A stretch of DNA of 64,000 bases, taken from NCBI GenBank assembly GCA_976551045.1, contig CDPCPM010000022.1:8990001-9054000 (forward strand). Reading direction: 5' to 3'. Positions 15,050 through 61,156 of this stretch are shown here, in pieces. A model generated the notes under the pieces. It was not told the DNA's origin and made no database searches. It was given only the letters and a program-made list of their open reading frames with translations. Numbering within the stretch: the stretch's first letter is position 1; each line of letters starts with the position of its first letter. Both the position numbers and the translations under genes were made by a program. The stretch is from Glaucostegus cemiculus (taxonomy: Eukaryota).

Positions 15050-16170
15050 TCTGGAGCATCTGGACAGAAAAGACACCGACATCAGACTGTTGTTCATTGA
15101 CTACAGCTCCACCTTCAATACTATCGTTCCAAGCAAGCCCATCTCCAAACTCCTAGACCTGGGATTCAACACATCCCTTTGCAAATGGATCCTTGACTTC
15201 CTGCCCGACCGCAATCAGTAAGGACAGGCAGCAACACTTCTGCCACCATTATTCTCAACACTCATGCCCCTCAAAGCAGTGTCCTCAGCCCCCAACTGTA
15301 CTCCCTATACACGCTTGACTGTATGGCCAGGTTCTGCTCTAACTCCATCAACAAGTTTGTAGATGATACCATTGTACTGGCCTGCATCTCAAATAACAAT
15401 GAGTCGGAGTACAGGAAGGAGATAGAGAGCCTAGTGACATGGCGTCATGACAACAATCTTTCCTTCAGTATTAGCAAAACAAAAACAGCTGGACATTGAC
15501 TTCAGGAAGTGGGGCAGGTCACACACTCCCGTTTGCATCAACAGTGCTGAGGTTGAGAGGGTTGAGAGCTTCAAGTTTCTGGGAGTGAACATCACCGATA
15601 GCTTGTCCTGGTCTAACCACATAGATGCCACGTCCAACGAAGCTCACTGGCATCTCTACTTCCTCAGGAGGCTAAAGAAATTTGGCATGTCTCCTTTGAC
15701 CCTCACCAATTTTTATCGATGCTCCACAGAAAGCATCCTATCTGGGTGCATCGCAGCTAGGTATGGTAACTGCTTTGCTCGTGACTACAAGAAGCTGTAG
15801 AGTTGTGGACACAGCTCAGCACTTCACGGAAACCAGCTTCCCCTCCATGGACTCTGTCTACACTTTTCACTGCCTTAGTAAAGCAGACAACATAATCAAA
15901 GACCCACCCCCCCAAACATTCTCTCTTCTCCCCTTCCCATTGGGCAGAAGATACAAAAGCCTGAAAACACGTACCACCAGGCTCAAGGACAGAGTCTATC
16001 CTGTGTTTTAAGACTATTAAACAGTCCCCTAGTACAAAAAGATGGACTCCTGACTTCATCATCTACCTCATTGTAGCCTTGTACCTTATTGTCTGCCTAC
16101 ACTGCACTTTCTCTGTAAATGAAACACTTTATTCTGCATTCTGCTATAGCAAACCAATTACCAATTTACC
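15050..16170 (+). mobile_element. Rex1/Babar-clade LINE, 5'-truncated RT to 3' tail
   Basis: LEHLD...[16 protein letters not shown]...CKWILDFL, PQxxVLSP, KFVDDT, VESFKFLGVNI and LYFLRRLKKF motifs; tail aaaccaattaccaatt. Confidence 0.85.
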
Positions 16171-17320: not shown

Positions 17321-18080
17321 GGTCTTATTTAAAAGTTGTGTGGTTCCAGTGTAATACAATGCTTATGATAAAGTTATTCACAAATCATTTATTGTGCAAG
17401 AGATTCTGCACCTTATTATATGCTCATTACCCAATGCACATAATGAGAGAATATGTGAAATAGCATTCCTCATCTAACAAGATGTATTAAGCAACTGAAT
17501 AGATTGATAGTTACCAAATCTGGGAGACAACAGAAGACGTTTCACTCTGAATGTAGCTGACAGCTGTCTTGTCCTGCGGGCACACATGCAACTAGGCTAC
17601 TAACTGGCCCTCTGCATAGGATCTGAAGATACAGCCTACATAACCTTTGGTACATTGTCTCAGAATTTGAGGTTGTAATGACTGTGAAGCTGTCAGTGCT
17701 CACCATCATTACAGTGTATAACTGACAACTTCTGCCATCCACGCATACACAAGTTTGGAAGTCCAGATAATGCTGTTAGTGATATGCTGCTCTTGTAGAA
17801 GCTGTTGCAGCTTTTTCAGATGCACTCTTAGAAACTATATGATGCAAATGTCAACATATTCCACTCTTTTCTCATTGTAAAATCCATTGAGAATGCTAAA
17901 CCTTGTGGTTAAGTTGTGACTGAAAATTTAAGTGGTCTGCTATCTCAATATTACTGCTAATTAATCTGCTAAGGGTTATAAAAAATTATTTTATAGTTGT
18001 GGGGTATCATTTCCTTCAAATTTTAAAATGTTGATTTTCAGAGTTATGAAAGTTATTTTTTTTAATTTATGATATTTAAA

Positions 18081-18339
18081 ATATCTTTATTAGTCACATG
18101 TACATCAAAACACACAGTGAAATGCATCTTTTGTGTAGAGTGTTCTGGGGGTAGCCCGCAAGTGTTGCCACACTTCCTGTGTCAACATAGCATGCCCACA
18201 ACTTCCTGACCCATATGTCTTTCGAATGTGGAAGAAAACCGGAGCACCCAGAGGAAACCCACACAGACACAGGGAGAACATTCTACGCAAAGATGCATTT
18301 CACTGTGTGTTTTGATGTACATGTGACTAATCAAGAAAT
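18081..18339 (-). mobile_element. V-domain-type SINE whose tRNA head is replaced by an inverted copy of its own tail
   Basis: The body matches the complete copy at 34940-35203; 18081-18146 is an inverted repeat of 18275-18339. Confidence 0.85.
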
Positions 18340-25192: not shown

Positions 25193-28100
25193 CTAGAGGG
25201 GCGGGTTGCACTTGAATCAGAGGGGGACCAATATCCTAGTGGAAAATTTGCTTTTCCACCAGGGTATGGATCGGATTCGAGAGAGCAAAGTTAGTGAGAA
25301 GGCGGATACATGCAGCAACCAAAGAGTGTAGGCCAAGCAATCAGGATAGCCATGTCTACAGTGAAAGGGCAGGTAGGACCACTGTTTTAAATTGTATCTA
25401 TTGGAATGCATGTAGCTTACTAGGTAAGGCAGATGAACCAAGAGCATGGATTGCCTCTAGGGAGTGGGATATTGTGGTCATAACAGAAACATGGCTGAGA
25501 GAAGGGCAGGACTGGCAGCTCAATGTCCCAGGACAACGATGCTTTAGACATGACAGAGGAACAGGTAAGTGGAGGGAGTGTTGCTTTTTTGATAAGGGAG
25601 GACATAACAGCAGTGCTCAGAGAGGATATTCTTGGGGGGGGGGGTCATCCAATGAGGCCATTTGGGTAGAACTTTGAAATAAGAAGGGGATTGTCACCTT
25701 GGTAGGGCTATGTTATTGACCTCCCAATAGTCCATAGAACCATAGAAATATAGAACTCTATGGCACAGAAACCAGGCCATTTGGCCCTTCAAGTCTGTGC
25801 TGAAACTTTATTCTGCTAGTCCCATTTACCTGCACCCAGTCCATAACCATCCAGACCTCTCCCATCCATGTAGCTATCTAATTTATTCTTAAAACTCAAG
25901 AGTGAGCCTGCATTTACTACATCAGATAGCAGCCCGTTCCACACTCCCACCACTCTCTGAGTGAAGAAGTTCCCCCTAATGTTCCACCTAAACCTTTCCC
26001 CTTTCACCCTAAAGCCATGTCCTCTTGTACTTATCTCTCCTAATCTAGGTGGAAAGAGCCTACTTGCATTAACTCTGTCTATACCCCTCATAATTTTGTA
26101 AACCTCTATCAAATCTCCCCTCATTCTTCTCCGCTCCAAGGAATAAAGTCCTAACCTGTTCAACCTTTCCTTGTAACTCAACTCCTGAAGACCTGGCAAC
26201 ATTCTATCCTTCCTATAGTTAGGTGGCCAGAACTGCACACAATACTCCAAATTTGGCCTCACCATTGTCTTATACAACCTCACCATAACATCCCAACTCC
26301 TATACTGAATACTTTGATTTATGAATGCCAGGATGCCAAAAGGCTTCTACAACCCTGTCTACCTGTGACGCCACTTTCAGGGAATTATGTATCTGAACTC
26401 CCAGATCCCTTTGTTTCTCTGGACTCCTCAGTGGTCCTACCATTTACTGTGTATGTCCTACCTTGATTTGTCCTTCCAAAGTGCAACACCTCACACTTGT
26501 CTGCATTAAATTCCATCTGTCATTTTCTGGCCTGTTTTTTCAGTTGGTCCAGATCCCTCTGCAAGCTCTGAAAGCCTTCCTTGCTGTCCACTACACCTCC
26601 AATCTTAGTGTCATCAGCAAACTTGCTGATCCAATTTACCATATCATCATCTAGATCATTGATATAGACAACAAATAACAATGGCCCCAGCACAGATCCC
26701 TGAGGCACACTACTAGTCACAGGCCTCCAGTATGAGGAACAATCATCCACTACCATTCTCTGTCTTCTCCCATATAAGACAATTTCAAATCCAGTTTACA
26801 ACCTCTCCTAGTGTCTGAACCTTCTGAACTAATCTTCCATGTGGGACCTTGTCAAATTTCTTACTAAATCCATGTATACAACATCCACGGCCTTTGCTTC
26901 ATCTACTTTCTTGGTAACCTCCTCAAAAGACTCTACAAGATTCATTAAACACGATCTACCTCGCACAAAGCCATGCTGACTATCCTTAATCAGCCCTTGG
27001 CTGTCCAAATACTTGTATATCCGATCCCTCAGAACACCTTCCAATAATTTACCTACTACTGATGTCAGGCTCACCAGCCTATAATTACCTTGTTTTACTT
27101 TTAGAGCCTTTTTTTAAACAACGGAACAACATGAGCTACCTTCCAGTCCTCTGGCACCACACCCGCTGCTAAGGACATTTTAAATATATCTGCCAGGGCC
27201 CCTGCAATTTCTACACCAGTCTCTCTAAGGTCCAAGGAAATATCTTGTCAGGCCCAGGGGATTTATCGAGCTTTATTCACTGTAAAGCAGCAAGCACCTC
27301 CTCCGCTTTAATCTCTATATGTTCCATGACACTACTGCTTGTTTCCCTTCCTTCCATATACATTATGCCAGTTTTCTGAGTAAATACTGATGCAAAAAAA
27401 CTGTTTAAGATCTCCCCCATCTCCTGAACCTCCACACATAGATGACCACTCTGATCTTCTAGGGGTCCAATTTTGTCCCTTACTATACTTTTACTCTTAA
27501 TATACTTGTAGAAACCCTTCGGGTTTACCTTCATATTATCTGCCAAAGCAACCTCATGTCTTCTTTTTGCCTTCCTGATTTCCTTTTTTAGTATTTTCTT
27601 ACATTTTCTATACTCTTTAAGTACCTCGTTGCCTATACCTGCTATACACCTTTCTCTTTTTCTTAACCAGATCGCCAACATCCCCTGAAAACCAAGGTTC
27701 CCTATGCCTGTTAACTTTGCCTTTAATCCTGGCAGGAAGATGCAAACTGTACTCTCAAAATTTCACCTTTGAAGGCCTTCCACTTACTGAACACATCCTT
27801 GCCAGTAAACATCTTATCCCAATCCACTCTTCCCAGATCCTTTCTCATTTCCACAAAATTGCCCTTTCTCCAATTTAGAACCTCAACTCGAGGACCAGAC
27901 CTTTCCTTATCCATAATTAACTTGAAACTAATGACATGATGGTCACTGGACCCAAAATGCTCACTTACACATACTTCTGTCACCTGACCTGTGTGGTTCC
28001 CTAATAAGAGATCAAGTATTGCATTCTCTCTCGTTGGTACCTCTATAAATTGATTTAGAAAACTTTCCTGAACACATTTGACAAGCCATCCAGCCCTTTC

Positions 28101-31100
28101 ACAGTGTGGGAGTCCCAGTCAATATGTGGAAAGTTAAAACCCCCTACTATTACAACTTTCTGTTTCTTATATCAGTCTGCTATCTCACTACAGATTTGTT
28201 CCTCCAATTCTCTCTGACTATTGGGTGGTCTATAACACAACCCTATTAGTGTGGCCACACCTTTCCTGTTTCTCAGCTCCACCCACATGGCCTCTGTAGA
28301 TGAGCCCTCCGGGCTGGTCTGTCTATGCACAGCTGTGATATTTTCCCTGACCAGTAATGCCACTCCTCCATCTTTCATCTTTCCCCCTCTATCACGTCTG
28401 AAACAATGGAAGCCCGGAACATTAAGCTGCCAGTCCTGCCCCTCCTGCAGCCAAGTCTCACTAATAGCAATAATGTTGTAATCCCACATGCCAACCCATG
28501 CTCTAAGCTCATCTGCCTTACCTACAATACTCCTTGAATTGAAATAGAAGCACCTGAGAACATTTCCATCATATACAAACCTTTGATTTCTGTCTATACC
28601 TGCAGTCCTTGTATGACCTTTTTCCACCTCCACCTCCCTATCTGCTCTAACACTCTGGTTCTCTTCCCCCTGCAAATCTAGTTTAAACCCCCCGGAACAG
28701 CACTAGCAAACCTACTCGCAAGTATGTTAGTCCCCCTCCATTTCAGCTGCAAACTGCCCCATTGGAACAGGCCCCACCTTTCCTAGAACAAAGCCTGATG
28801 TCTGTGGGAACTTGAGGATCAGATGTGTCAAGAAATTGCACATAGTTGTGAGAATTGTAGGTTAGTCCTAGTGGGAGATTTCAATTTTCCTGTTGTCAAC
28901 TGGGCTACCCAGAGTGCAAAAGGCTGGGGCGGAATTTGTGCGGTGTGTCCAAGATAGTTTCCCCATGCAATATATAGAGGAACCAATTTGGGAAGGAGCA
29001 ATACTGGACCTCAACTGTATCTGAAGTGGCAGCTGGGGAGCACTTTGGGTCCAGGGACCACAATTCTATTAGCTTTAAAATAGTTATGGAAAAAGATAGA
29101 ACTAGTCCACAGGTTAAAGTCCTGAACTGGAGCAAGGCCAACTTTGAGGGCATTAGGCAAGATCCAGCTGGGGTTGACTGGGTGACTCCATTTAAAAGCA
29201 AAGGAACAGTTGGAAAATGGGAGGCTTTTAAAAGTTATATCAAGAGTTTAAGGGCAGCATGTTCCCGTTAGGGTGAAGGGTAGACATACCAAGGTCAGGG
29301 AACCCTGGTTGACGAGAGATTTCAAGGCTCTGGTCAGGAAGAAGAAGAAAGCATACATCACATTTAGGCAGCTGGGTAAAAAATGAATCCCTTGATGAAA
29401 ATAAGAAGTTTAAGACCAGGCTTAAGGGGGAAATCAGGAAGGCAAAAAGAGAGTATGACATGGATTTGGCAAAGATAATCCCAAGAGGTTCTTCAGTTAT
29501 ATTAACAGTAAAAGAGTGACTAGGGGGAGACTAGGTCCTCTTAAAGACCATCAGGACCACCTCTGTGTGCAGCTGCAGGAGATGACTGAGATATTTAATG
29601 TCTCTTTCTCCCCATTGTTTACTAAAGAGAATATCATGGATGCCAAAGAAATTAGGGTAATAAGTGGTGAGGTATTGGATCACCAAGCTTCCTTGAAGCA
29701 CATTAAGGGGAGCAAATCCCCAACACCTGACCAAATGCACCCCCGAATCTTATGGGAGGCCAGGGAAAAAGATCACGGAGGCCTTAGTAGAGATATTTGC
29801 TTTGTTGTTAGCCACTGGTGAAATCCCAGAAGTTTGGAGGGTGGCTAAAGTTGTTTCATTATTCAAGAAGGGTAGCAAGGACAGGCCAGGGAACTACAGG
29901 CTGGTGAGTCTGACTTCAGTTGCAGGGACGTTACTGGAGGCAATTCTGAGGGACAAGATCTATCAGCACTTGGATAGTCAAAGCCTGATCAGCATGTTTT
30001 TACGTGTTAGAGATCATGTCTGATTAATCTTTTGGAGTTTTTTGAAGAGATAACTGAGGGGATAGATGAAGGTAGGGCAGTGAAAATTGTCTACATGGAC
30101 TTTAGTAAGGCATTTATCAAGGTTCCACGTGGCAGGCTGATCTGGAAGGTTAGGTCGCATGGGATTCAGGGGGAGCTAGTGAGAATTGGCTCAATGATAG
30201 AAAGCAGAGGGTAATGGTTGAAGGTCGATTCTTCAGCTGGAGGCCTGTGACTAGTGGGGTGTCCCAGAGATCAGTGTTGGGACTTCAGTTATCCATTATT
30301 TATGTAAATGTTTTAGATATGAATGTAACGATTAGCAAGTTTGCTGATGATACTAAATTATGGGGTCTTGTTGATGGTGAAGCAGGTTACAATGAATTGC
30401 AAAGAGATCTTGATCAGTTATGGAGATGGGGAATGGTAAATGGATTTCAAATTAGAAAAATGTGAAGTGATGCATTTTGGACATTCAAACCAGGGTAGGA
30501 CTTATACAGTAAGTGTCAAGTGTTGTGGAACAGAAGGACTTGGGAGTACACGTACACAATTCGCTGAAAGCATCCGCGCAAGTAGACAGGGTAGTGAAGA
30601 GGGTGCTTAGCCTGCTGGCTTTCATCAGTCACCGCATTTAGGAGTAGGGACATTATGTTGCAGTTATATAAGTTGTTGGTGAGGCTGCACTTGGAGTATT
30701 GTGTACTGTTTTGGTCACCCTGTTATAGGAAAGACATTGTCAGGCTGGAGAGGGTGCAGAGAGATTTAAGGGGATGCTACCTAGAGGGCTTGAGCTATAG
30801 GGAGAGTTTGGCTATGCTGGGTCATTATTCCTTTGAGACTGAGGGGTGATCTCATAGAAGTTTATAAAAGCATCAGGGGTATGGATAAGGTGGTTGGTCA
30901 TAATCTTTTCCCCAGGGTGGGGAATCCAAAACGATACGAGATACGAGATAAGAGGGGGGAGGTTTAAGAGAGACCTGAGAGGTAACTTCTTTACACAGAG
31001 GGTAGTGAGTACCTGGAATGAGTTGCCAGAGGAAGTGGTCAAGGCAGGTACAACTGCAACATTTAAGAGGCATTTGGATAGGTACATAGAGGGGAGGGGC

Positions 31101-31220
31101 ACGGAGGTTATGGGCAGAACGGGGACAATTGGGACTAGCAAGGAGAACGCTATGGTCGGCATGGACCAGTTGGGTCAAAATGGCTGTTTCCGTGCTGTAT
31201 TACTCCATGAGTATGACTTA
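25193..31220 (+). mobile_element. CR1 LINE (ORF1 end, ORF2 endonuclease-RT, 3' UTR) split by an antisense CR1 insertion; host parts are 25193-25732 and ~28800-31220
   Basis: GLHLNQRGTNIL (ORF1 esterase end) and NCIYWNACSL...ITETWL (APE domain). The frame xPPNS|xELEDQMC resumes at ~28803 and continues through YMDFSKAF, SKFADDTKL and GNFFTQRVVSTWN. Many frameshifts. Confidence 0.9.
25733..28797 (-). mobile_element. Younger CR1 LINE nested in the opposite orientation
   Basis: ORF1 end, APE domain (ISETWL, CYRPPN, GSSDH), RT (QHGF, PQGSVLGP, KFADDTK) and 3' UTR, with a tandem (TTCTATGG)-like tail at 25733-25756. Confidence 0.92.
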
Positions 31221-31264
31221 TTATTAACACAATGCATTCAGCGAACCTGCAACAGAGAATCAAG

Positions 31265-31471
31265 ATGTTATAGCCTTGCACCTTATTGTCTACCTGTACT
31301 GTATGTTCTCTGTCACTGTAACACTTCATTCTGCATTTTGTTATTGTTTTCCCTTGTACTACTTCAATCCATTGTTGTAATGAAATGATCCGTATGGATA
31401 GCATGCAAAACAAAGTTTTTCACTGTACCTTGGTACATGTGACAATAATAAACCAATTCAATTCAATTCAA
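31265..31471 (+). mobile_element. Rex1-family 3' UTR fragment with (CAATT)n tail
   Basis: Closely similar to 12505-12705; ends aaaccaattcaattcaattcaat. Confidence 0.8.
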
Positions 31472-33490: not shown

Positions 33491-34939
33491 CATACTACCC
33501 TTTTGTAGCTCTGTCTATTTTGTGACCTTTTATTGTTCTTTATACCTCTCCCACTCATGAGGATCAATGCTAATTTATAGCTTTTTTTGAGTGTTTCTTA
33601 GGTTTATTGTTCATTACACTTTTACTTTACTAGTGTTATTTTTGACAACAAGAATCCTTGGCCTGTTGGGGTTAAAACTGTTCTGTGTCATATTATATTC
33701 TTCTTATTTAACTTCTTGTCCTGTTCTACTGTGGATTACCCATTTGCAGACAAACATTGAAAGCAATAGGCAGTGTTCAACTCATTGTCTGGAAGCTTCA
33801 CCCAAATTCAGAATTTTTGCAGCTGTTCTGCATTTTGTCATTTGAACACTACATTGAACTCTATCAAGTACACTTGGTTAGGCAGTGACCTAAATCTGGA
33901 TTCATATTCATTACTACATCTGAGATGACCTGATTCCTTACTGTTTCTGGGATAAACTGTTGTAGATAACTATCCAAAATGTGCTTATCTCTTTATCTCA
34001 ATTTATATGACAGTTAGAATCTCCCATTAAAATTGTGCTAGTTGTAGTGATGTGTAAAACTAATATTGTCATGTAAAAACATATTGTAAGATAAAGCTAT
34101 TTCTGTCCCCTAATATTAGACTTAATTTCAACAATGGAGCTCTAAGGTGGTACAATTAAAGAATAAACAGTCCATTGGAAAGTTCTCTTAAAGATAACAT
34201 CTGTTCATAAGATTATTGCAGTCTTTACAGAAGAGCAATTTGTTACCGGGGTTATTTCGGCAAATTGATGGCAATTTAATGATTCTGATTACTGTTTACG
34301 GGGTTTGCTTATTTTGCTTTCATAAAAATGTTAATTTCCTTTGTCTCTTCCACTTTTTTACATGTCAATTTCTTTCATTCTTTCTTGAAAATTCTAGGTT
34401 GCTCATGTTGAGCATTTTACTATTACCAGCATCCTTTCAGTGGAAATATCAGGGCTCTGTAAACCTAAATTAGAAGTCATAAAGCTGAATGTGACAGGAG
34501 CTGGATGCGGCCAGGGCATGAATCAGAAAGACGGACAGAATAAAACTGCAAGTAAAGAGATGGAAGAACCACGCTAGCTTGCGATACAGCAGGAAAAAAG
34601 ATCAAATAACCTGAATAAAGACAGACAGTAGGGAGAGAGATAAAAGAGGGAGCATTATAAGTCATAACCAAGAGACTATTCAAAGTGCAGAAATAGAGCC
34701 AAAGTAGAAAAAAATCAATTTCATATTTTATTCTTCTCTCTAAGATTTCCTTAAAGGTCACTTTAAAATACCATAACAGTCAATGTGTTGAAATCTTGTA
34801 TTCTCTTTTAACAGAACAGAGCACATTTGGAAGTTTCTATTCTTGGATATAGATACTCTAGAGTAATATTATTTACTAGAAGGAAGGCACTGCTTTATGT
34901 GCATTTTAGGCTGCCTCCTTGGACTAGGTTTGAGGATAT

Positions 34940-35203
34940 AAGATATCTTTATTGGTCACATGTACATTGTAACACACAATGAAATGCATCTTTTTTGTGT
35001 AGATCATTCTGGGGGCAGCCGCCATGCTTCTGGCACCAACATAGCGTGCCCACAACTTCCTAACCCATATGTTTTTGGAATGTGGGAGGAAACTGGAGCA
35101 CCTGGAGTAAACCCATGCAAGACACAGGGAGAACGTACAAACTCCTTATAGACAGTGGCCGGAATTGAACTTGGGTCGCTGGCGCTGTAATAGCGTTATG
35201 CTA
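34940..35203 (-). mobile_element. tRNA-derived SINE, near full length
   Basis: B-box GTTCAATTCC on the minus strand at ~35161-35170, the V-like core, and a tail shared with the 18.1-kb copy. Confidence 0.8.
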
Positions 35204-37004: not shown

Positions 37005-37268
37005 TTTTAAATTTAAATTAAATTTTTAAATTTTATTTACAGCATGGTACAGGCCCTTTCAGCCCTCCGAGTCCACGCCGCCCGTTTTAAAGCCCCAAAT
37101 TAACCTACCCATAGCTCTTTCAGAATGTGGGAGGAAACCGGAGCACCTGGAGGAAACCCACGCAGACACAGGAGAACGTACAAACTCCTTACAGTCAGCG
37201 ACGGGAATTGAACCCCGATCGCTGGCACTGTAACAGCGTCGCGCTAACCGCTACGCTATCGTGCCGCC
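37005..37268 (-). mobile_element. Young tRNA-derived SINE (HE1/V-SINE-like) with intact Pol III boxes
   Basis: Minus strand GGCGGCACGATAGCGTAGCGGTTAGCGCG (A box) ... GGTTCAATTCCC (B box). CpGs are retained; V-like core and A-rich tail. Confidence 0.85.
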
Positions 37269-48454: not shown

Positions 48455-51400
48455 ATTATTGTTTTTAGAAATTTTATTTATACAATAATAAAACTATATA
48501 CAGATATAAACACTGTAAACTGACAGTATAATACGGTACAGAGTTTTAAACTGCACTGTTTATCAGGCTTGGCAGCATTAGCAAAGACATCAACTTATAG
48601 GACCACTGGATACACAATAACATCTGTTCATAAAAAGTTTTAGGTTTATAATGTGCTCTTATAGTCAAAAGTTGTTCAATGTGGGGTTGGGAATTTGTGC
48701 ATTTTTTATCTGCTGTTTGAATTCAGTCAACATGCACTTCAGGTCAGAAGTACAATATGAAGAATTTCCTCCAGCTTCCATGGAAAGGAAAACTAAGTAC
48801 TCCAGAGTATAGAACAAATTGTCAGCCTGAAACTTAGAATAGAATGTTTCTTATATTGTTGCAATAATGCATTTTAATCACATGTCAGAAGACCATTTGC
48901 TTGCTGCCTCAAAGTAATATTTTAAATTTCTCCCGAGATCTATCCTCAGAGAAATCTCTGAATAACACTGTCAGTCAGTTTTAAGGGTTGGGCTGATTGG
49001 ACAACAGGAGTGCTGCAAACTTTACCAGGGTTCACGTTCTTGATAACCAGTGGCTGCTATTGGCACACTTTGTGTTTGGTTTTGTGCGTGTGTTGAGAAA
49101 AAGATTCGGGTCAGCTATCATCAATTCCATAATCGAACAGGCTGCTGATATTTGATGCCCAGACTTGCAGATGACTAATCACCATCTGGTGCAAAATGCC
49201 AGAAGGTTGTGAGGATATACGTTGCACAACACTTCAGTGGAAATTGCCATTTTTATAGGAGATGGAGAATATTGGAAAGAATTATTGCATACTAGATAGA
49301 AAATAAATATACTCTAAAGTAAAAAAAGAACCTTCCTTAAAATTCTGGAAAGAATTTAGTCATTAAAAAAAATCTAATAGGGACTCCAGTCACAGAGTAG
49401 CAAGAGACTAGTTAACAATGAGGAACAGCCTGGAGAAGTTAAAAAGTATGGTATTTATTAATGATATTAAGAAATTCTTAAGTCATGTTTGTTCAGACAC
49501 AAATTTTACAGTCATTTGAGGCTATTAAGCCTTTGCAAGTAAAATGAAAGTTGTATTTGTTGTGACAAATGGTAGGGAAATATTTGATGACAAAAATCAT
49601 TGGATGTGTTAAAACAAAAACTTATAAACACATTTAGGCTGTGCATTATACTGTGAACTCTGGTTGTGAAAAGTTCCTGAACAAATGATTTTTGTGCACT
49701 TCAATACTTAAATGTTTTTTTTGGCAAATGTTCCACAAGAAGAACCATTCAATCAAACTATCTAATGCCGCTTACATTAAGTAGCAATACTCAAATACAA
49801 ATTATCACTGGAAAATGAAAAGGGTAAATTACCTCAAACAGCACAGAAGAAACAGTTTACAAGCAACAAAGAAGTGTCAGGGCACTTTTGACAGCCTATT
49901 ATTTTAATTTCCCCAGTTGTGTCACAATATTCATGTGAAATACACGCAATCAATCTCATGATCTGCTTTCTTACAACAATTAAAGCTGTAATATATCATA
50001 AATTCAGTTTAAGTTCATGATAATATTTAATGCAAAAATCCAAATTAACAAAATTATGAAGTTATAAAATTGGAATAAAATGTTTCAAAGTTTGTAAGTA
50101 TTCATTCTCATTCCAATCCTTCTTCCAAGACTCTTCCATCATTGTCTGATTTCATAAATAGCATGTCCATACCGAATGTAAAAGGAATTGCATCTGGTGC
50201 TATACTGCATGCCTTCAACTATGAACAATTTTAAAACCTTCTACATACATTTTACAGATAATGTCACTAGTAGCTCTCAGAACAGAATGCTCATTTTGAA
50301 ATATTTACAAAATATGTAGATTTCTCATGTTGAGGTTCCTCAAGTAGAAACAGAACTGAAATTTTCTTTGTGAACAAATGTAAAGAAAATATTTTTACAG
50401 GTGATTACAGTTCTAATGTCTATAAGCGAATAGCAGTTGTACTGCACCTTTTTGATATTTAACACAATAAAAGCAATGCACAATAAAATTACAGCAATTC
50501 CAAGGTAAATAATTTACAGAGAGCACAACACAATAAAGAACATTTCTGTTCTTTAATCTTAAATGTATTTGAAATCAACTTAGCATGTTGTTACCAAAAC
50601 CTAGGCAAAAAAAGATCCAGGAACATCTTTATAAAACAAAATCACTTAATAAAATGAATTAAACAACTGTTTTTCAATCCTTTATCTGAGAATTAATTAA
50701 CTGTTAAGAATCTAGGGAAACAATAAAACTTGAAAACTTTATTTGAATTTTTAACACTGTATCAAGTAATTAGTGAGCATTATCCATTCACATTACAAAT
50801 TGCCTCACAAATCCCAAAACTATTTGGAGAAATTTCTTTCAATTACTCATTTATTTTCCAGATTACTAATCAGAAGCTTCCTTCAGTAAGACAATTCCAA
50901 ATCAGTTCTGATACTTGTGTTTATTAGAAAATAGTTTAACAAACAGCAAATATGTATGCAGCATGAAGTTATTTATTTTAATTGATTTCATTAAGGTTTG
51001 TATGATTTTTGGTGAACCATACGAAACCTGTTTCATACCGATTGTATATGTGGAGCAGACGTTCAGGAGTAATTCAATGACCATAATACAAAGGTACCTG
51101 CAATTAATATTTTAGAAAGGGGCAAAAGATGAATTTTACTTCAACATGCTATCAAAAGGCATGCATGACAAAAGCAAATGTTGTAAGTCATTCATTAAAC
51201 AGAAAATAAAAATAATTTGGCTAAAGTCCTTCTGGCAATTTTGATATCCTCCTAAAAGTGGCAGTGGTGTTATATCCAGTCAATGCTACATGGTAACATT
51301 ATATTGAGCAGGTTGTAAACTTTCAATTCAAATAATTAATTGAAAAATGATGTTTAATAATATTCTGTTCTTTTGCCATTTATGTTATGTTAATATTATT

Positions 51401-52615
51401 GCAGAATAAGTGAACAACATCATTGTTCTGGATTACAAGAGAACACAATAGCCTTCCCATTGTATTTGCATTCTGAGAAAATCTAACCAACCTAAATATT
51501 AATAAAATTAACTTTGACACTGTCTTTACTTAAGCCTTTATTTATTTTGGCATTGGGTCTCATTTCTCAATATCGCATTTTTTTGAATGAACATAATGCT
51601 GTCAACCACCTCAAGGATACTTGTGAATGAGAACAAACCAGATTCTCCTTACTGCAGATCTGTTTGATAAGCTGGCACTAAATAATGATAGAAAAAGGAT
51701 GGAATTTGATGAAGAAAAATTACAACACTGAAAATTCCCCTTTCTAGAATTTATGACTGTGTTTACTTCAACAATTATTCTAGCACATTTTTGTACAAAA
51801 CTACCTTCTTTGATCTGTTTTATTGAAACTACCAAGAACTCGTTGATTGGATTTGCATCAAACTCTTCCTCAAGTTGTCATTTGATGAAGGAAGTGTTTT
51901 TAATACTAATTTGAATGGGGAAGCAAAATATGTTCTTATCACAGCTTACTGAGCAGCACAGTCACCAAGCAGATAAATAATCATGCGTTTCGTGCTAAAA
52001 ATGTCCTGTTGCATGTAGGCCGAAATTGTGTTGAAAGCACTTTGCAAAAAGCTGTTCATGGCAGTAATTGGTTTATTCTTCTGTCTTATTGAAAGAAAGC
52101 AGTCATATCCTTGTGCATGAATACTCTACACAAAATTTAATAGCATGTACTTAATGTACATTTCATATGCAAATTTGAACAATGGCATTGTTCCAAAAAG
52201 AAAATAGACAGAATTTGTTTCAATCTAGGAATTTACTCCTTGTGCACTTGTGCAGTCTTCAATGTTATTGTTTGAAATCCTTCTTCAATAGTGCCACACA
52301 TGCCTAACTGGACAAAATTACTTTTGGCACCAAAGCAGAACGCATAGTTCAAAGTCTTCAGAGAAAAATATTTCTCCTTTCTCAAGAGAACTGCAAAATA
52401 TTGCCATCTACGAGAATTTTTAAAATTGATCAGATGGGTTCAAAACTTACTTGCCTTTTAGGAATATATCCAACTGTATTGGAGACAATTACCACAGATT
52501 GTTTCCACTTATTATTTAGTAATGGTCATGCACCATGAACACCAATTTAAATATGATCTTCACTAGCAATCTCACACTTTTTTGACCTCTTGTTTTTCTT
52601 CAAATCCTTGCCTGG
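48455..52615 (-). other. NLGN1: Probable long 3' UTR of NLGN1
   Basis: AT-rich stretch almost free of the LINE debris found elsewhere in the window. It follows the stop codon and ends at a well-formed polyadenylation context. The end point is inferred, and more proximal AATAAA sites also exist. Confidence 0.55.
48473..48478 (-). terminator. Candidate distal polyadenylation signal AATAAA of NLGN1
   Basis: Minus strand reads ...ctgtatatagttttattattgtatAAATAAAatttctaaaaac..., with upstream UGUA elements and a downstream U/GU-rich tract (tattttgtttagtatagttgtgc). Repeat density rises shortly beyond this point. Confidence 0.55.
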
Positions 52616-53435
52616 CTATACCCTAGTTGTTGAATGTGAATGGGGATGAGGATGCGGAAGGGTGCTGTTTTGTCCTCCAGTAAATGTGTTGAATGTGTGG
52701 AGAGGCTGCATTCCAGGTATGGTACTTGGAATCATTGTAATGGTCTTCGGTGTCATTAAAGGTATATCATCTGGAGATCGCCTCATTGCTAATGTATAAT
52801 CCGGAGGACAGGCTGTCCGCAGAACAACCTCATGTGGATGGATGGAATCACATTCGTGATCAGTGTGCTTCATCTGTAGGGACATAATTTCTTCTTCTTG
52901 TGCATGAGTTAGGTCGTTAGTGGTGTTACGCTGAGGGCTGCATCTTCTATGAACATCATGCCTCCTTTTATCCTTCTTATAATACAAAGCTGCAAAGGCA
53001 AGGATATTCAAAAACAATAGGGAAGCTCCAACAGCAATAGTAACGCTTAACTCTGTTGAATAGTCCCTTTGATCAACCAAGAAAGGACCTGCCGAATGCT
53101 TCTGGTCATCCTGTTTAACAGTAGGAAAGACTGATGTCACAGGACGTTTAGTGGTAACAGACCACTTCTTTGATGGTCTGTTTGTAATTTCTGATGGAAC
53201 TTTAGTTGTTGTAGAAGTATACTGGGAAATGTCATTCAAGCTATGTAAATGAGGAACCAGCTCCAACCATAAGTTGACTTTATTAGCTCTATAATGCTCT
53301 TTAACACGTGGTTTCAGTCCGATATGCAGGTAGAGTTGATCTTTCTGAGAATACCTTGACCAGGCAACCTCTTCAAAACGGTTTGGCTTGGTGTGGATAA
53401 ATTTGGTATCCTGAGGAACTGGTTGATTTGGGTCA
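52616..53435 (-). CDS. NLGN1: Neuroligin-1 last coding exon: end of the ectodomain, stalk, transmembrane helix and cytoplasmic tail ending in the PDZ ligand HSTTRV
   Basis: Acceptor cctacag|T at 53437-53436 completes GG|T (Gly) before [14 protein letters not shown] segment [24 protein letters not shown]; NLGN1-type tail [25 protein letters not shown]; stop TAG at 52618-52616. Confidence 0.98.
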
Positions 53436-53628
53436 CTGTAGGAGGAATAAATTTGTATTTTACAGATCATGAAGGAATCACATTGAAAAAGAAACAAAAT
53501 AACCATAATTTTCCAGATATTCTGTTATATGTTTTACATATTAATCTTCTGTTTGGAAGATACTGCTGACTCTGTTCTAAAGATATGATTGGTTATAAGG
53601 TATACAACAAGAATGAAATAAAGTCAGC

Positions 53629-54016
53629 TGTTACGAAGTAGCTTACTTAGGCAAATACCCCTTTAAGATGGGACATTGTGTGTGTGCAACGTATTACGTC
53701 AATAGAAGATAAGACTAACGTGATGAGGTCATTGCAAGAAAGAAAAAAGATAAGAGAGAGAGAGACAGACAGACAGATAGAAAGAGAGAAGAAGGAGAGA
53801 TGGCAGCCTGTTTTGTTTCTGTCGATGGATGAAGGACAGTAACTGTGTTTGTCACTAAAATCCGTGGATGGATTTCTGGAGTAGTTCAGTGGAGTTCACT
53901 TTGTCGGTAACCTGTAGAAGGACACAGGTGTTTGCGTGGACAACCACATTTTGGATGCTCTTCAGAGTGGCAGATACTGTGGAACAAAGTGACGGAATTC
54001 ACTTTGCTGCTAACCT
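53629..54016 (+). repeat. Inverted copy of the first 388 bp of the LTR (pairs with 55656-56043)
   Basis: Manual base-by-base comparison with the reverse complement of 55656-56043 gave 3 mismatches in 388 bp and no indels. Confidence 0.95.
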
Positions 54017-54940
54017 AGCAGTTTCTTGTAAAGTGTCCACATTCTTTTCATTTAGGTATGCAGCTATTTCAGCTGGTACACATCTTTTAAAGTCTTCTAT
54101 TAAAACTAATTCTGTCAATTTCTTATAATCATCAACTACATCTTTCGCCATACACCATCGTTCAAAACATATTCTCTTTCCATTGGCAAACTCCATGTAT
54201 GTTTGATCTGAAGTTTTCTTCAAGTCTCTAAACTTTTGTCTGTACGCTTCTGGTACCAACTCATACACTTTCAAGATTGCTTGTTTTACCTTTTCATAAT
54301 CAGCTGCCTCCTCCACAGACAAAGCAGAATAAGCTTTTTGAGCTTTGCCTTTAATCACACTCTGTAACATAAGAGCCCATCTCCTCTTTGGCCAATTTAG
54401 ACTCGTAGCAACCTTTCCAAAATGTTGGAAATACTGTTCAACCTGATCTTCATCAAAAGGAGGGACTAATCTTACCTCCCTACTGGCTGAAAACTCATCA
54501 TCAGAATCAGAATCTGAACTCTTTCTCTGCATTCTTAACTCATGCTTCCTTTGTTCCTCCCTCTCTTTATTTTCCAGCTCCATCCTCCTCAATTCCAACC
54601 TCTTTTCCTCTAGTTTCCTTTGTTCTGCTTCAGACTCAAATTTCAATCGGTCCCTTTCTCGTTCAGACTCTAGTCTCCTTTGCTCTCGTTCAGACTCTAT
54701 CTTTGCTAACTGAATTTGGGCATCAGAAATCGTTTGTTCACTGCCAGGAAATTGTTTTACTACTCCCTCTTCAAACACTTGCATCTTCACATAATGACCA
54801 GCTATTATTCTCTGGATATCTGCTTTTCTCATAGATTGTGTTACTGTCGTAAGTTTTAGCTCTGTAGCAAGAATTAATAATTCAGACTTCTTCATTCTCT
54901 GCAATCCACTTGGTGTGGGTTTTTTCATAATCACCTCCAT
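53999..54940 (-). CDS. gag: Retrotransposon Gag (coiled coil plus capsid with SCAN-like C-terminal domain), C-terminally truncated, open frame of 313 aa
   Basis: ATG at 54940, ~150 nt downstream of the PBS. Motifs VPPFDEDQVEQYFQHF, WALMLQSVIKGKAQKAYSAL and YELVPEAYRQKFR...LVLIEDF are typical of Gmr1-like Gypsy gag. No CCHC knuckle; the stop codon is supplied by the inverted LTR copy. Confidence 0.88.
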   Translation of the reverse strand: MEVIMKKPTPSGLQRMKKSELLILATELKLTTVTQSMRKADIQRIIAGHYVKMQVFEEGVVKQFPGSEQTISDAQIQLAKIESEREQRRLESERERDRLKFESEAEQRKLEEKRLELRRMELENKEREEQRKHELRMQRKSSDSDSDDEFSASREVRLVPPFDEDQVEQYFQHFGKVATSLNWPKRRWALMLQSVIKGKAQKAYSALSVEEAADYEKVKQAILKVYELVPEAYRQKFRDLKKTSDQTYMEFANGKRICFERWCMAKDVVDDYKKLTELVLIEDFKRCVPAEIAAYLNEKNVDTLQETARLAAK

Positions 54941-55090
54941 TGCTACTGGTTTCCACACACACGCCAATTAAGAAAATTTATTGGACTAACCCCAATGTCC
55001 AAACTCAGACCTCCAGTACCAATCTTAAGTTTGACTGCAAGCCAAATCTTTGGACTGGATCCCAGAACGACACTCATTAATCTTGGGAAG

Positions 55091-55108
55091 ATCCCGGACG
55101 AGCCCCCA
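55091..55108 (-). promoter_or_regulatory. Primer-binding site, tRNA-Pro
   Basis: Minus strand TGGGGGCTCGTCCGGGAT is the canonical 18-nt tRNA-Pro PBS, directly downstream of the LTR end. Confidence 0.95.
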
Positions 55109-55112
55109 ATTT

Positions 55113-56043
55113 TGTTACGAAACCAGCAACAAAAGAAGCACACCAATTCATACTTCAGTGTTAACTACTTTATTAATAACTACATCCGATAATATGCAAA
55201 ATAAGAATAAAAAGTTAGTATATTAGTACACAATAAAATGTTAGAATCTTAAACTATAACCCCAAAAACTACTCGTCGTGTGTGTGCGGCAAGTTCCTAA
55301 ACTCCAAGTCCAGGAATTAGTTCTTAAAGTTCAGTTCAATAAGCCGTAAGATGACACGAATAAAGGCTTCTTCACAAGCACTGTCCACCGAAGACAAAAC
55401 ATAGCTATAGAGAGAGATTAGAGAGGAATCACGAAATCCAAATGTTCCACTTGAAACTCAAACGACACTTCAGGGCTTACTCGGTAGTGACTTTCTCACC
55501 CTGAAAACTCCTTGTATGTTGACTGTCCATGCAAATACCTGTGTTCTTCTACAGGTTAGCAGCAAAGTGAATTCCGTCACTTTGTTCCACAGTATCTGCC
55601 ACTCTGAAGAGCATCCAAAATGTGGTTGTCCACGCAAACACCTGTGTCCTTCTACAGGTTAGCAGCAAAGTGAATTCCGTCACTTTGTTCCACAGTATCT
55701 GCCACTCTGAAGAGCATCCAAAATGTGGTTGTCCACGCAAACACCTGTGTCCTTCTACAGGTTACCGACAAAGTGAACTCCACTGAACTACTCCAGAAAT
55801 CCATCCACGGATTTTAGTGACAAACACAGTTACTGTCCTTCATCCATCGACAGAAACAAAACAGGCTGCCATCTCTCCTTCTTCTCTCTTTCTATCTGTC
55901 TGTCTGTCTGTCTCTCTCTTATCTTTTTTCTTTCTTGCAATGACCTCATCACGTTAGTCTTATCTTCTATTGACGTAATACGTTGCACACACACAATGTC
56001 CCATCTTAAAGGGATATTTGCTTAAGTAAGCTACTTCGTAACA
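55113..56043 (-). repeat. 5' LTR (931 bp) of the Gypsy-type element
   Basis: Minus strand runs TGTTACGAA...TTCGTAACA (TG..CA with a 9-bp terminal inverted repeat). AATAAA at 55174-55169. A PBS follows 4 nt after the end. Confidence 0.9.
55524..55783. repeat. 103-bp tandem repeat (~2.5 copies) inside the LTR
   Basis: The anchor ACAGGTTA recurs at 55551, 55654 and 55757; the two full units look identical. Confidence 0.9.
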
Positions 56044-56189
56044 CAGCTTTTAGTGGAAATTCTTTGAATTCTATTCATCTTCATATCTTCCAAAAGTTCT
56101 TTTCATTTTTGTTAACACTCAAATGTAAGATTCCCTCTATTGTTTTAAATTGAGCTCAGCCAATGAGCAAAGACAAAACAATTTAAGGT

Positions 56190-58390
56190 TTGCAGTGCAT
56201 GCATATAAATGGAAGGAGCATGGCAGATAAGACTGGTAAGCTGCAAGCACAACTTGCTTTATGGGACAATGATATGATGGTGGAGACATGGCACAAAGAA
56301 CAAGAGGATTGGAGGATTGACACCTAATATTTCTGAGTACAAGATATTAAGGAAAGATACAGAAGGAATAAGGAAAAGAAATTATGAAGGCAATGAAAAA
56401 TGTTGTAGTTGAAGAGTTAAGGACTGATTCTTATTGGATTTAAATGTGGAACAAGAGAGAAGCTGTAACATTGCTTGTGTACCAAAGGCCACTAAGTAGT
56501 GAAAGGAAAGTAGAAGAAGAAATATATTGGAAAATTACAGAAAGACACAAAGATCACACACACTGATATTGACCTGAATAGAGATAGATGGGACAAATTC
56601 CGAAAAATGGCATGCCAACTTTCTTGGTCAATTAGCAAGAAAACAGAACTGGAACTGATTCTGGAGAATTAATGTGAAGGAACAGCAGGCAAACGTCCTT
56701 GGAAAGCAAAATATTAAAATAACATAGATAGTCAAGAAAATTGTGAATATTTTCCTTCTATCTCCAGAGTACAGAATCTGCCATAGCCAAAAATGATAAC
56801 CAGAGGGATAAAAATAAAGAGGAATTAGTTAAAAGATTGTGGCCTTTGAAGTAGGAAAGCCACCTGGTGGGATGGCATGAACCTGACACTTTTGAGGAAA
56901 AGATAGAAATTCCTGAGCACGGGACTACAGTGTTTCAGTCTTCCGTGGATAAGTTGATGACATCCATGGATTGCAAGTGTTGCATTTTTGCTTAAAAAAA
57001 AATCACAGAAGGCTAATCATAGCAAGTACAGGCCATTTAAGTGATTGTCAGTTTTGAGGAAACCTTTGGAGACAATAAATCAGGACAATATTAATTGTAA
57101 AGGTTCAGACTAGTAAAGTGTATACAGATGTGTTAATGTTACAGATAAAGATGAAAAGGATAATGTGGTTAATGTGGACCTCAAATGGAACTTGCCAAGC
57201 TATTGCAAAAAAAGAAGTTAGCAAAATTATACCCCCAGGATACAAAGGATTAGAAAATAGTGGTGATTTTTTTCATAATGTAGGGAAGAGTCAAACAGTA
57301 TTTTATTAAAGCTTATTTCAGAATAAATGGTATTCTTCATCAATATCTTTAACTTGAACTTACCTTAAAGTGTATAATTACAACTTAAAAATGATACATC
57401 ATTTCAAAATATAACAAACAATGTAAACATAGTAATAGGTAGAAACATTGGGTAGACATGTGACTGGTTTGAAATTCAATGCAGAGAAATGTGAAGTAAC
57501 ACATTCTGTTAGGAAGAACAAGGGGAAACAACTTGCATAGTTGGGACAATTTTGAAGGAGATTAGGAACAGTGTGGCCAGGAAATGTGTGTACAGCCCAC
57601 TGCTGCACTATGGCAGTTTGGATAATGGAAATTCACCTTCATGGAATTCACAAATCACTATAAAAAAATCTGGGCTATGAAATAAAAACTTGCTCTTACG
57701 GAATTTATGTTTTAAAAAATTAATTAATTAACAAGTTTTTTCCAACTTGCATTTCTTGGCACATGCATAGATGATAGAGCTTTGCATTATGGAAAATCGC
57801 AATACAGCAGTATGGATTGTTTTCTAGGAACACAAGCCCCCACTTCCTTCCCCATGCCACCCCCCCCCCCCAGCTACAACACATAACACTGTAATATGGG
57901 GGTCATCTGCACAAACAGGTTGAGAAAGCTATTGAAAACATACAAGATCTTTTGCTTTATAGATGGAGGTACATTAAAGCAAATAAGGTATGCTGAGTTT
58001 TTATGAAGCATCATCCAAAGTACTGAACCGGGAAGGAGATTTGATGGAGATATTTAAAATAATGAATGGTTTTGATGGAGCAAATAAGAAGAATTTTTTT
58101 TTGTGGGAGATGGGTCAGAAACCAGGAGATACAGATTTAAGATTATATCAAAAGAACCAGGGGCAGCATGAGGAAACATTTTCTTGTACCCAGAAGTCAC
58201 TGTGTTCTGGATTGCACCAATTGAAAAGGTGGCAGTAGCTGAACAATAAGTATTACTCAGAAGTGAGTAATATACTTCAAATAAAAACTGCATAACTATT
58301 GGAAGGTAAAAGGGAACTGAATTAATTAGATGGTTCTATCAAAGAGCTGGCACAAACACATTGGGCTGAATAGCCTTCCTCTTTGGTCCA
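56190..58390 (+). mobile_element. Very old CR1 remnant in the last NLGN1 intron
   Basis: Decayed ETW, WxLKFNAEKCEVTH and GDLMEIFKIMNGFD motifs, with a CR1 3' UTR (gggctgaatagccttcctct). Confidence 0.6.
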
Positions 58391-58940
58391 TCACTTTAAG
58401 TTGACAATAATTATGACAGACAATTACTTTTGGTTAAAAATGACCCAATTCAACTTCATTCTACCTTTGACATACTAAAATGAATACTTGCTCACTTTCT
58501 TGCACTCAAACTACAATCTGTTAACCAGACTTTCAATTCATTTTAATTTTTTTGTTTTCTATATTGTTGTTGCTGGGGTTGTATTAAGTAGCTGCAGCGA
58601 GAACTTCAATTAAATAAGAAAACCAAGGCTGTGCTAAAATGGTTTGAAAATATTTAGGGAAATATTTAATAAGCAGATGTAGGGAATGCAATTTTGTTTA
58701 TAGCCACTTTTATTGAAGTTGGCAATTTCCTTAGAAGTAAATTATATCAGAAATATCCAACATATCTGAATGCAATCAACATATCATTGCGGTGGTCTCT
58801 GGATTAACAACCAGATGACCAGACAGAGGTTAGAAGCAGATAACAGTTTATATTAGAAGTACCGAGGTTAACATCAAAATTTATAAATAAACAATTTTTG
58901 GTAATATTTGTAGTATTATTAATTCTTACCCATGACTTAC

Positions 58941-59730
58941 CCTGTTTTTGCAAAGTTAGTCCAGTACGTCATCACAACAGCACTTAGCATGACATCATTT
59001 TTGGAGAAATTACAAGGGAAAAGTTCAGTAGCACCAATCATTGGAACCCCAAACACATAAGGAATTTCATCTCCATGTGATGCATCAGCCCAAGCTGGCA
59101 TCATGTCACTCTGGCAGTGATGATAAAAGGCATAGAAGAAAGTGGGTGAACCAAACCCTGAATGTAGGTCAGCTGTAGCCACTGCTGGTGCCACCCATTG
59201 ATGGTCAGTAAACAAAGCCAACAATGTTTTCCTCCGAGTTTCCGGATTATGACGGTCCGCCCAATCTGTATACATGAACTTGATGGTCTCCCTTAGGACA
59301 TCCTTGCCTTCAGGATAACCATACAAGTTATCCACAAAATTAGATACAGCAAAGTCGAAATCACTGGCTGAAACTCCATCCTCGTTGTCCACTATGTTTT
59401 CAACAAATTTATATCCCTCACCTTGGTTTACTCCCAGCATGATGTCATAGTTAAGGAATTCACCCTGTTCCATTAGAATCTGAGGATCATCTGGTATAAC
59501 ATCTCCATCAATGACTGGTCCAAAGGCAATATGGTATCTTGCAGGCTGTATGTCCTGTTCAACAAGTTCCTTGTACTGTTTGGAACGTAAACATTCAATC
59601 AAGTCAATTGTATCTATCATGTTGCAGCCAACTTTTGTGGCCAACTGCCTTGCGAACTTTGCTGGCTGATAGCTGACTGCCCAGCTGGACAAAGCAGTAC
59701 CACTTTGTGCTATTGCTCTCTGAAAAAGGC
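58941..59730 (-). CDS. NLGN1: Neuroligin-1 large exon (790 nt; [19 protein letters not shown]...WTNFAKTG)
   Basis: Acceptor ccacag|GC at 59732-59731 and donor AGG|gtaagt at 58940-58939; phases match both flanking exons. Contains NLGN1-type [14 protein letters not shown] and [16 protein letters not shown]. Confidence 0.97.
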
Positions 59731-61156
59731 CTGTGGACAGATATCACAAAGGGTACTAAGAAAGTCATCAATGTTTATTACAACATTTAATTGTTACACT
59801 TTAATGAGAACTAGAGGTGGCACTTGATCATCAAAGTGGTTCAAAAGTATTATTCCCTTCAAAATTCAAAATTCTATAATGTCTTAATTAACTGGTCACA
59901 GCACTTGAGAATACCTAAAATTGAGGCCTATCAAGAAAATAAAAGTACTTGTAGTTATCTATGCTTGTTAATACTTTACACTTAATTTTACATCCACCTT
60001 ATGGATTATTTGATGAATTTATTTAGTATTTGATGGTCACTATCAAATTTCCAAGTAATATTATAGCTATAGTTTTAATGGCATAGCTGCTCACTTTGCG
60101 AGTTACTGAACTAAAAGTTCCATATTCACTACTACTTAAGTATATTTATTAATTCACATTATAATAGAATTCTGACATCATTACACACATAAACATTCTA
60201 TTTCACCAGAGAACACAATTTAAATTATAATGTAACATATTTAAATACACAGAACATTTCTCCTCCATGGATTCTGATGGAATGTTGGCACCTGTCTTTT
60301 CTCTTTGCAGGTTTGATGCATTTATCTCTTCAGTCTTTTTCCACGTTATATTTTGTATAGCATTCTTATGCATCAACATATTAAGAATTAACAAAAGCTA
60401 TGGCCTACCACATTAAGTAACAAATCATCATCTAATCTTTCGTGGTAAACAATTACAGAGATGTTCTGTAAAGATTCTCGATCATTTTAGCTGTTTGGAA
60501 GGTTATTTATGAACTATAAACAGTAACAAAATACTGAAAATATGCAATATATTCTTTTTTCACCAGCTCCAACAACTGCTGAAAAGTATATTAGAGAAAA
60601 AATTAGGAAAAATCAATCATTAAATGCATTAGGGTGTTATATTTTACAGTAATTAATGGTAAAAAGAAACAGTATTTTATGTTAATTTACATGTTGGTCA
60701 CTAAAGAGTTTAATCAAAACCTCAAGCTATGGCAGCTACTCTGAACCTCAGTTTGCTGTGTAAGAGAGGCATTACACATTCTTCTGACAAATTCACAGTA
60801 TAGTTTAAAAATTCTCCACAGGACGATACACTAAAACACCAATTATATACATTTTCAAGAAACTAAATGATATTCTCTTTAACTCAAAATGTCTTCAAGT
60901 GTAGCAGCGTCATTTCTTGTGGATTAATTTTAAAGTATAAAAAGAAGAGAAACCCCTTAGCACTTTAAAGAACATCATATTTCCGACTACTGAGGATGTG
61001 TTTGAACAAAGAGAAAACCAAGAGAATTATTTTGAGCCTTGCAAGCCACCATCACGTTAAACACATGAAAGAAGAGAACATTTCAGAAATTTATGTTTGA
61101 CTTTCAATTTCAAAATAAATTACTCACATTTGCTGGATTAATTGTAAAATATTTTG

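Follow-up and report, generated by a model that had tools for sequence, protein, structure and literature searches.

A canonical insertion of an LTR retrotransposon has two direct LTRs with TG..CA ends, a primer-binding site (PBS) beside the 5' LTR and a short target-site duplication (TSD), for which a range of 4-6 bp has been reported (PMC8220671); no TSD length specific to Gmr1 was found in the literature examined. Gmr1-like elements are marked by a SCAN domain (10.1101/2025.03.03.638093) and encode integrase upstream of RT-RNase H (PMC8220671; 10.1101/2025.03.03.638093), and the standard pathway of reverse transcription has been described (PMC10886601). In grasses, products of template switching with intact TSDs have been described (PMC1950507), and HIV proviruses are reported to be shaped by aberrant strand transfers at several stages, on both the plus and the minus strand (PMC12657518); among defective HIV proviruses, one with an inversion and one with an inversion plus a deletion accounted for 1.3% each (PMC9278108). 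In Mu killer of maize, both terminal inverted repeats (TIRs) derive from one end of the parent element (PMC3440606), and for Ginger elements the conversion of LTRs into TIRs has been called unclear, with two incidental opposite LTRs suggested as a source (PMC2836005). Here, an insertion from a 64-kb window (the whole stretch of DNA analysed) is described that lies in a neuroligin-1-like gene, within its last intron, and in which the 3' end of a Gmr1-like element is replaced by an inverted copy of its own U3. As far as the DNA itself can tell, the structure is well formed and genuine, and it is apparently undescribed so far.

Anatomy of the insertion and its parent family

On the plus strand, the insertion consists of CAGC, a 388-nt arm, gag in antisense, a leader with the PBS, the LTR on the minus strand and again CAGC (Table 1). 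The initial annotation had described this arrangement, with a perfect 4-bp TSD, arms differing at three of 388 positions and a 9-bp sequence common to both LTR ends, and all of its parts were confirmed: CAGC abuts both ends exactly, the two arms (53629-54016 and 55656-56043, 388 nt each) carry 3 mismatches, and the LTR is bounded by TGTTACGAA as a perfect 9-bp terminal inverted repeat. The TSD is direct, not inverted, and among lengths of 1-11 only 4 (trivially also 1) gives a match; a match by chance is expected in about 1 in 160 cases for any 4-mer, and for CAGC in about 1 in 260-560. The inverted arm extends precisely to LTR position 1, where it abuts the TSD, and it stands where the 3' end of the element (pol, purine tract [PPT] and 3' LTR) is missing. 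TG..CA ends, a TSD in the 4-6 bp range and a PBS beside the 5' LTR are all present, and in place of two direct LTRs there is one LTR with an inverted partial copy.

Table 1. Coordinates of the features of the insertion and its host intron (positions in the window)
Feature	Position	Strand	Basis or remark
Last intron of neuroligin-1-like gene, 5505 nt	53436..58940	-	exons and homology
Target-site duplication, left copy CAGC	53625..53628	+	flank comparison
Inverted copy of LTR positions 1-388 (U3 side)	53629..54016	+	begins TGTTACGAA
Truncated gag ORF, 313 aa	53999..54940	-	ATG 54940, TGA 54001-53999
10-nt junction microhomology	54007..54016	-	gag codons 309-311 plus one base = antisense LTR 379-388
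SCAN (capsid C-terminal) domain, aa 230-311	54008..54253	-	Pfam profile
Primer-binding site, 18-mer, 4 nt downstream of LTR end	55091..55108	-	sequence match
Complete LTR, 931 nt, TG..CA	55113..56043	-	one full copy only
AATAAA near LTR 3' end (LTR position 870)	55169..55174	-	host-gene sense
Tandem array in U3, 2.5 copies of 103-bp unit	55524..55781	.	self-comparison
Target-site duplication, right copy CAGC	56044..56047	+	flank comparison

The PBS, which we take to be of the tRNA-Pro type, fixes the orientation by its place 4 nt past the LTR end, so that U3 forms both the outer end at 56043 and the outer end of the arm. LTR positions 1-388 are probably all U3, judging from the AATAAA at 870 and from TATA-like words at LTR positions 635 and 786. 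The mismatches between the arms fall at LTR positions 22, 30 and 134, the last of them at an (AG)n/(AGAC)n boundary; they comprise two non-CpG transitions and one microsatellite change, and they do not separate the origin models considered below. Neither a PPT before either LTR start nor a 3' R was found in the element, and no pol remnant was found in the 64-kb window, where tblastn with three full polyproteins matched gag alone. Furthermore, self-BLAST with the element and both flanks revealed no second copy and no repeat across the insertion point in the window, and Rfam gave 0 matches within 50000-60000. Two other occurrences of TGTTACG were rejected as LTR ends, one at 21619 that has no matching terminal repeat and one at 52924 that falls inside a neuroligin exon.

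The gag ORF contains neither a nucleocapsid knuckle nor pol, and its final two residues and stop codon are supplied by the arm. The SCAN domain was recognized by Pfam with an E value of 4e-11 and 43 bits (cut-off 27), and it covers profile positions 1-80 of 90, as against 1-89 in intact relatives. The best relatives of gag are batoid proteins. The closest, among the best 120 of 873 matches, is Pristis pectinata P0122, a 1424-aa polyprotein in the order SCAN-IN-RT-RH (78% identity over 192 aa), and the match to full-length gag, among the best 120 of 692, is also from Pristis (67% identity). Integrase lies ahead of RT-RNase H in 3/3 of the top long relatives scanned, the element itself being without pol. 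Judged by its gag, the parent is a Gmr1-like (SCAN-gag) Ty3/Gypsy LTR retrotransposon with batoid relatives, and these homologs suggest that the host is probably a batoid as well. No protein more than 78% identical to gag was found among the best 120 of 692 and the best 120 of 873 matches, and the host's own element family seems to be missing from the protein collection searched. No PDB sequence matched gag at E up to 1. Classification as a domesticated capsid-only Gag was not adopted, given the clipped SCAN domain and the absence of any sign of selection.

The insertion makes up 44% of the intron and has the same orientation as the host gene; a gap of 193 nt separates its end from the last splice acceptor. 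The top PDB matches of the upstream exon are neuroligin-1, and neuroligin exons are colinear on either side of the element. In the host pre-mRNA, the two arms are predicted to form a duplex of 386 base pairs (-752 kcal/mol); this hairpin, together with a sense-strand LTR poly(A) signal and donor-like sites, lies near the last acceptor of neuroligin-1 and could alter splicing.

The gag/arm junction and the origin of the second U3 end

The first 9 nt of the arm extend the gag frame as R-L-A and are followed by G. In a MAFFT alignment of 120 near-length homologs, positions 309-312 are R, L, A and D in 75, 86, 107 and 109 proteins, respectively; among the long homologs, 106 of 120 aligned to the site (14 were dropped) and the corresponding counts are 52, 78, 104 and 105. 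The motif is present in 11 of 13 batoid-named proteins examined (R-L-A-D in 5 and K-L-A-D in 6), and the closest relative is identical across TLQETARLA. Because Asp codons start with G, about 10 nt would be common to the sense strand of gag and the antisense strand of the LTR, and because the inner 10 nt of the arm (54007-54016) are common to gag, 378 nt of it are uniquely LTR. The strict junction pattern occurs at 7 of 127,980 positions in the window (background 5e-5) and at 2 of 921 antisense-LTR positions, both of them tandem copies; the decamer lies at 55553 and 55656, of which the second is the one in register with the arm. The longest exact match between the retained internal sequence and the antisense LTR does not exceed 10 nt. 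Taken together, the residues of the homologs indicate that gag sense and LTR antisense probably share a 10-nt microhomology at the gag/arm junction, which argues for a homology-guided join and against an arbitrary misjoin.

Inverted repeats that are long and nearly perfect are known to give rise to assembly or library artefacts, such as a fold-back read, an amplification chimera or a repeat misjoin. An artefact is very unlikely here, however, because the inversion reaches no further than the LTR terminus, beyond which lie the TSD and unique flank, the host exons keep their order on either side, the arms differ at 3 sites, the join obeys the microhomology in the gag frame, and 5/5 junction 31-mers tested occur just once in the window, with no N. 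Another history would be that of two independent convergent insertions that were later joined by deletion, with CAGC matching by coincidence. A single microhomology deletion would be enough for this, and opposite LTRs from separate insertions have been proposed as the origin of Ginger TIRs (PMC2836005); however, two near-identical copies would have to land near each other and the TSD would have to match by a chance of 1/160 to 1/560, which makes this history extremely improbable.

The explanation that is preferred, tentatively and with confidence somewhat short of even, is a plus-strand switch during reverse transcription that produced a cDNA with two U3 ends, which was then inserted by integrase. 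The element would be a dead-on-arrival insertion, its Gmr1-like cDNA having been mis-made within the particle. After a normal second strand transfer, the plus strand would have copied the LTR, the PBS and most of gag to the end of SCAN, and would then have jumped via 10 complementary bases to a second plus-sense U3 strand, most simply the displaced plus strong-stop DNA; copying of this acceptor up to its PPT-defined 5' end would leave an authentic U3 end at each side. Since U3 and U5 agree over their first 9 bp, integrase is proposed to have inserted the product normally, with a 4-bp TSD, and leftover flaps may have been trimmed by the host after integration. A single error of reverse transcription would account for the junction, the exact terminus and the TSD together. 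In addition to the strand transfers in HIV and the grass products described above, concerted-integration assays with RSV employ U3-only donors (PMC10209032), and foreign DNA ending in TG..CA is reported to be accepted by Ty1 integrase, with TSDs being made (PMC2939329). However, it should be noted that this is a single locus, that every truncated EVD insertion reported kept two LTRs (PMC10462705), and that no precedent for a two-U3 insertion, in vivo or natural, was found in the literature searched, in which older virology is sparsely covered.

A further point against the switch in reverse transcription is that an identical final sequence would result from events after insertion, with a 9-bp return homology at hand. 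A normal provirus may have undergone deletion, inversion and deletion, or a double template switch at a fork, with one join at the 10-bp homology of gag and LTR and the other at the 9-bp terminal repeat of the LTR, and with the TSD being the original one; in variants, the 3' LTR would have flipped before a deletion, or two deletions would have followed the nesting of a sister copy in antisense. Microhomology-flanked inversion-deletions are a known class of structural variant. Homology of 9-10 nt is found at both junctions, the TSD and TG..CA ends come at no cost, and antisense nested self-insertion is known for EVD (PMC11624286); however, two homology-guided joins are required, and at least 3.7 kb of coding sequence (P0122 has 1232 residues beyond the junction) would have to be lost along with about 540 nt of LTR. 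When the surviving LTR is counted in place of the lost one and the deleted internal DNA is left out, the terminal 9-mer is one of 6 return sites of at least 9 nt and one of 17 of at least 8 nt in a narrow count, and one of 33 in a wide count. The competing sites of at least 9 nt being just 6 in the narrow count, the odds gained by models that place the event at the time of integrase action are modest. An origin after insertion is judged somewhat unlikely.

The initial annotation had named a copy-back cDNA and a post-insertion template switch as the two possible origins; these were the right main candidates, the copy-back model is strengthened by the 10-nt microhomology, and a third model has to be added to them. 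Here, two cDNAs would have given one U3 end each to one integrase complex, the chromosome would have been cut with a 4-bp stagger, and host end-joining would have fused the free arms at the 10-nt microhomology. This would account for the exact ends and the TSD and would permit the arms to differ from the outset; moreover, two-donor concerted integration of U3/U3 ends is a standard format of the RSV assay (PMC10209032), and in aberrant HIV integrations host polymerases are reported to append viral DNA of either strand by short homology (PMC5041404). However, both cDNAs would need long and unequal resection, a germ-line double-strand break would have to be survived, and host-finished HIV ends are usually long duplications or deletions, not a short TSD (PMC5041404). 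Participation of two cDNAs is, on balance, unlikely. The probabilities assigned to the origin models are a matter of judgement.

Age, mobility and implications

The divergence between the arms is 0.8% (95% interval 0.16-2.3%), and the CpG observed/expected ratio is 0.57-0.61 in the LTR versus 0.17-0.24 in the flanks. When substitutions were simulated in gag (2000 per level), the frame stayed open in 80% of cases at 0.4% substitution, 50% at 1.2% and 18% at 3%. The structure had been called recent from the low divergence of the arms and the unbroken gag; this stands in the sense of a divergence under about 2.3% and of retained CpG, but the open gag contributes little, as the simulations demonstrate. 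Substitution rates in elasmobranchs are slow, and because of these rates and of possible arm-to-arm conversion, "recent" may still mean millions of years.

It had also been suggested that the element could represent an unusual non-autonomous class, and that the same junction at several loci would establish a mobile family. The class is unsupported: the element lacks both a PPT and a 3' R, and the window contains no other copy of it. The predicted transcript has R-U5-PBS and is without a 3' R and PPT, so that minus strong-stop DNA would find no acceptor on its own RNA and normal retrotransposition would be impossible; the PPT and the 3' LTR or R by which TRIM/LARD-type elements are copied are absent. 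Membership of a mobile non-autonomous family, whether spreading through RNA or, with a Ginger-like or Gypsy integrase, as a TIR DNA element, is highly improbable. The TGTNR ends, TIRs and 4-bp TSD fit the anatomy of Ginger, for which integrase-driven excision has been termed theoretically possible (PMC2836005), and an LTR and PBS are retained; however, TRIM-type non-autonomous elements retain two LTRs, a PBS and a PPT (PMC10886601), the 64 kb hold no second copy, and the chimeric tail is present in 0/240 homolog proteins, which is weak evidence, the host's family seemingly not being in the collection. Recurrence of the junction would be insufficient as proof of mobility, since the microhomology is built into the parent and the same join could arise de novo. 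The element is probably a one-off copying accident that is unable to spread.

It is doubtful, and indeed distinctly unlikely, that Gmr1-like elements recurrently make two-U3 cDNAs by microhomology strand switching that are then inserted by integrase. If they did, then, because integrase precedes RT in these elements, the same event at a more downstream point would, in one step, enclose gag-PR-IN between TIRs and leave out RT, which would be a Ginger-like anatomy and a one-step route from LTR ends to TIRs; this is speculative, and the present copy stops in gag. Such products within host transcripts would likewise be ready-made hairpin "killer" alleles against the U3 of the family, and for EVD, LTR hairpins have been proposed, not demonstrated, as silencing triggers (PMC11624286). 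If the ends predate insertion, the locus would be a natural germ-line example of integrase using two U3 ends. Such two-U3 products would be missed by LTR finders based on direct repeats, and probably by standard provirus primer sets. As a single dead copy unable to spread, the element has moderate weight at present.

Comparison with described systems

With Gmr1-like Gypsy elements (P0122), the insertion has in common the SCAN gag, the TG..CA LTR, the PBS and a short TSD; however, it is without pol, PPT and 3' LTR, and its second end is an inverted U3 copy. The template-switch complexes of grasses are similarly aberrant products of reverse transcription that were still integrated and are flanked by TSDs (PMC1950507); unlike the element, they keep direct outer LTRs, and two U3 ends are not described in the part of that report cited here (PMC1950507). 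The HIV proviruses with inversions are likewise integrated products of aberrant reverse transcription, again with no description of two U3 ends in the sections cited (PMC9278108). In autointegration inversion circles, an LTR likewise adjoins an inverted segment of the element; however, these are unintegrated dead ends with junctions at the LTR ends, whereas the element is integrated and its junction lies mid-U3 (PMC7197481).

In architecture, the nearest counterparts of the insertion are Mu killer and the Ginger transposons. Mu killer resembles the insertion in being a part-deleted element with two inverted same-side ends, near a host transcript and with a long hairpin predicted, and here the inverted one-end duplication lies within a host transcript, in the neuroligin-1 intron. 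Mu killer is a plant DNA transposon with demonstrated silencing (PMC3440606), whereas the present case is a vertebrate LTR element in which U3 alone is duplicated and a silencing role would be putative. Ginger1 and Ginger2 share TGTNR termini, TIRs, a 4-bp TSD and Gypsy-type ends (PMC2836005), which correspond here to TGTTA ends, 388-bp arms and CAGC. However, the TIR is 388 bp as against 40-270 in Ginger (PMC2836005), the element is a single copy that carries gag and a PBS, and its TSD is CAGC and not the CCGG/CCGT for which Ginger1 is specific (PMC2836005). Gag is its only coding content, with no Ginger integrase/transposase, and its ends are those of an LTR with a PBS. DIRS elements have inverted LTRs, a tyrosine recombinase, no TSD and an internal complementary repeat; membership in this group is ruled out by the TSD and by the DDE integrase encoded by the relatives. 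Altogether, the element is a defective Gmr1-like derivative, and not a canonical insertion or a member of the TRIM, Ginger or DIRS groups.

Sequence differences within the LTR sequences

Two of the three mismatches between the arms lie no more than 30 nt from the terminus, at 53650 and 53658 in the inverted arm versus 56022 and 56014 in the intact LTR. The local small palindromes at these two mismatches are better fitted by the bases of the intact LTR than by those of the inverted arm; this is a weak hint that the terminus-near changes occurred in the inverted arm. The two full 103-bp units of the U3 tandem array also differ at three positions, all of which are G/A differences when read in the element sense and are clustered within 16 bp at the edge of the array (55524-55545).

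RNA-processing signals and other repeats

The poly(A) signals and donor-like sites of the element are situated no more than about 2 kb from the last neuroligin-1 acceptor, on the sense strand of the host gene, and could truncate the neuroligin-1 transcript; alternatively, LTR-driven chimeric transcripts could be produced. Among the homologs of the element's gag, four batoid Gmr1-type Gag proteins (P0003, P0014, P0077, and P0145) were annotated with host-like names or as fusions to host gene models, and these are probably annotation artefacts or exonised elements. Elsewhere in the window, the old LINE-like fragments, which we take to be CR1-like, include an inverted pair (64% identical), and identity within the dispersed repeats is 79-91%.

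RNA-processing signals of the element and other repeats in the window
Feature	Positions	Strand
AATAAA (sense-strand poly(A) signals)	55174, 54982, 54571	minus
Splice-donor-like sites	55499, 55480, 54475, 53646	minus
Old LINE-like fragments	26207-27962 vs 29038-30734	
Further old LINE-like fragments	25816-26346, 28172-28702, 30858-31388	
Dispersed repeats, first set	12106-12585, 15673-16150, 31266-31449	
Dispersed repeats, second set	18074-18344, 34936-35196, 37107-37239	

Spacing between the LTR and the PBS

The LTR end is separated from the PBS by a 4-nt spacer (AAAT, 55109-55112); this spacer is usually 2 nt. The U5 end of the element's family may perhaps need unusual processing, which, speculatively, could favour U3 ends.
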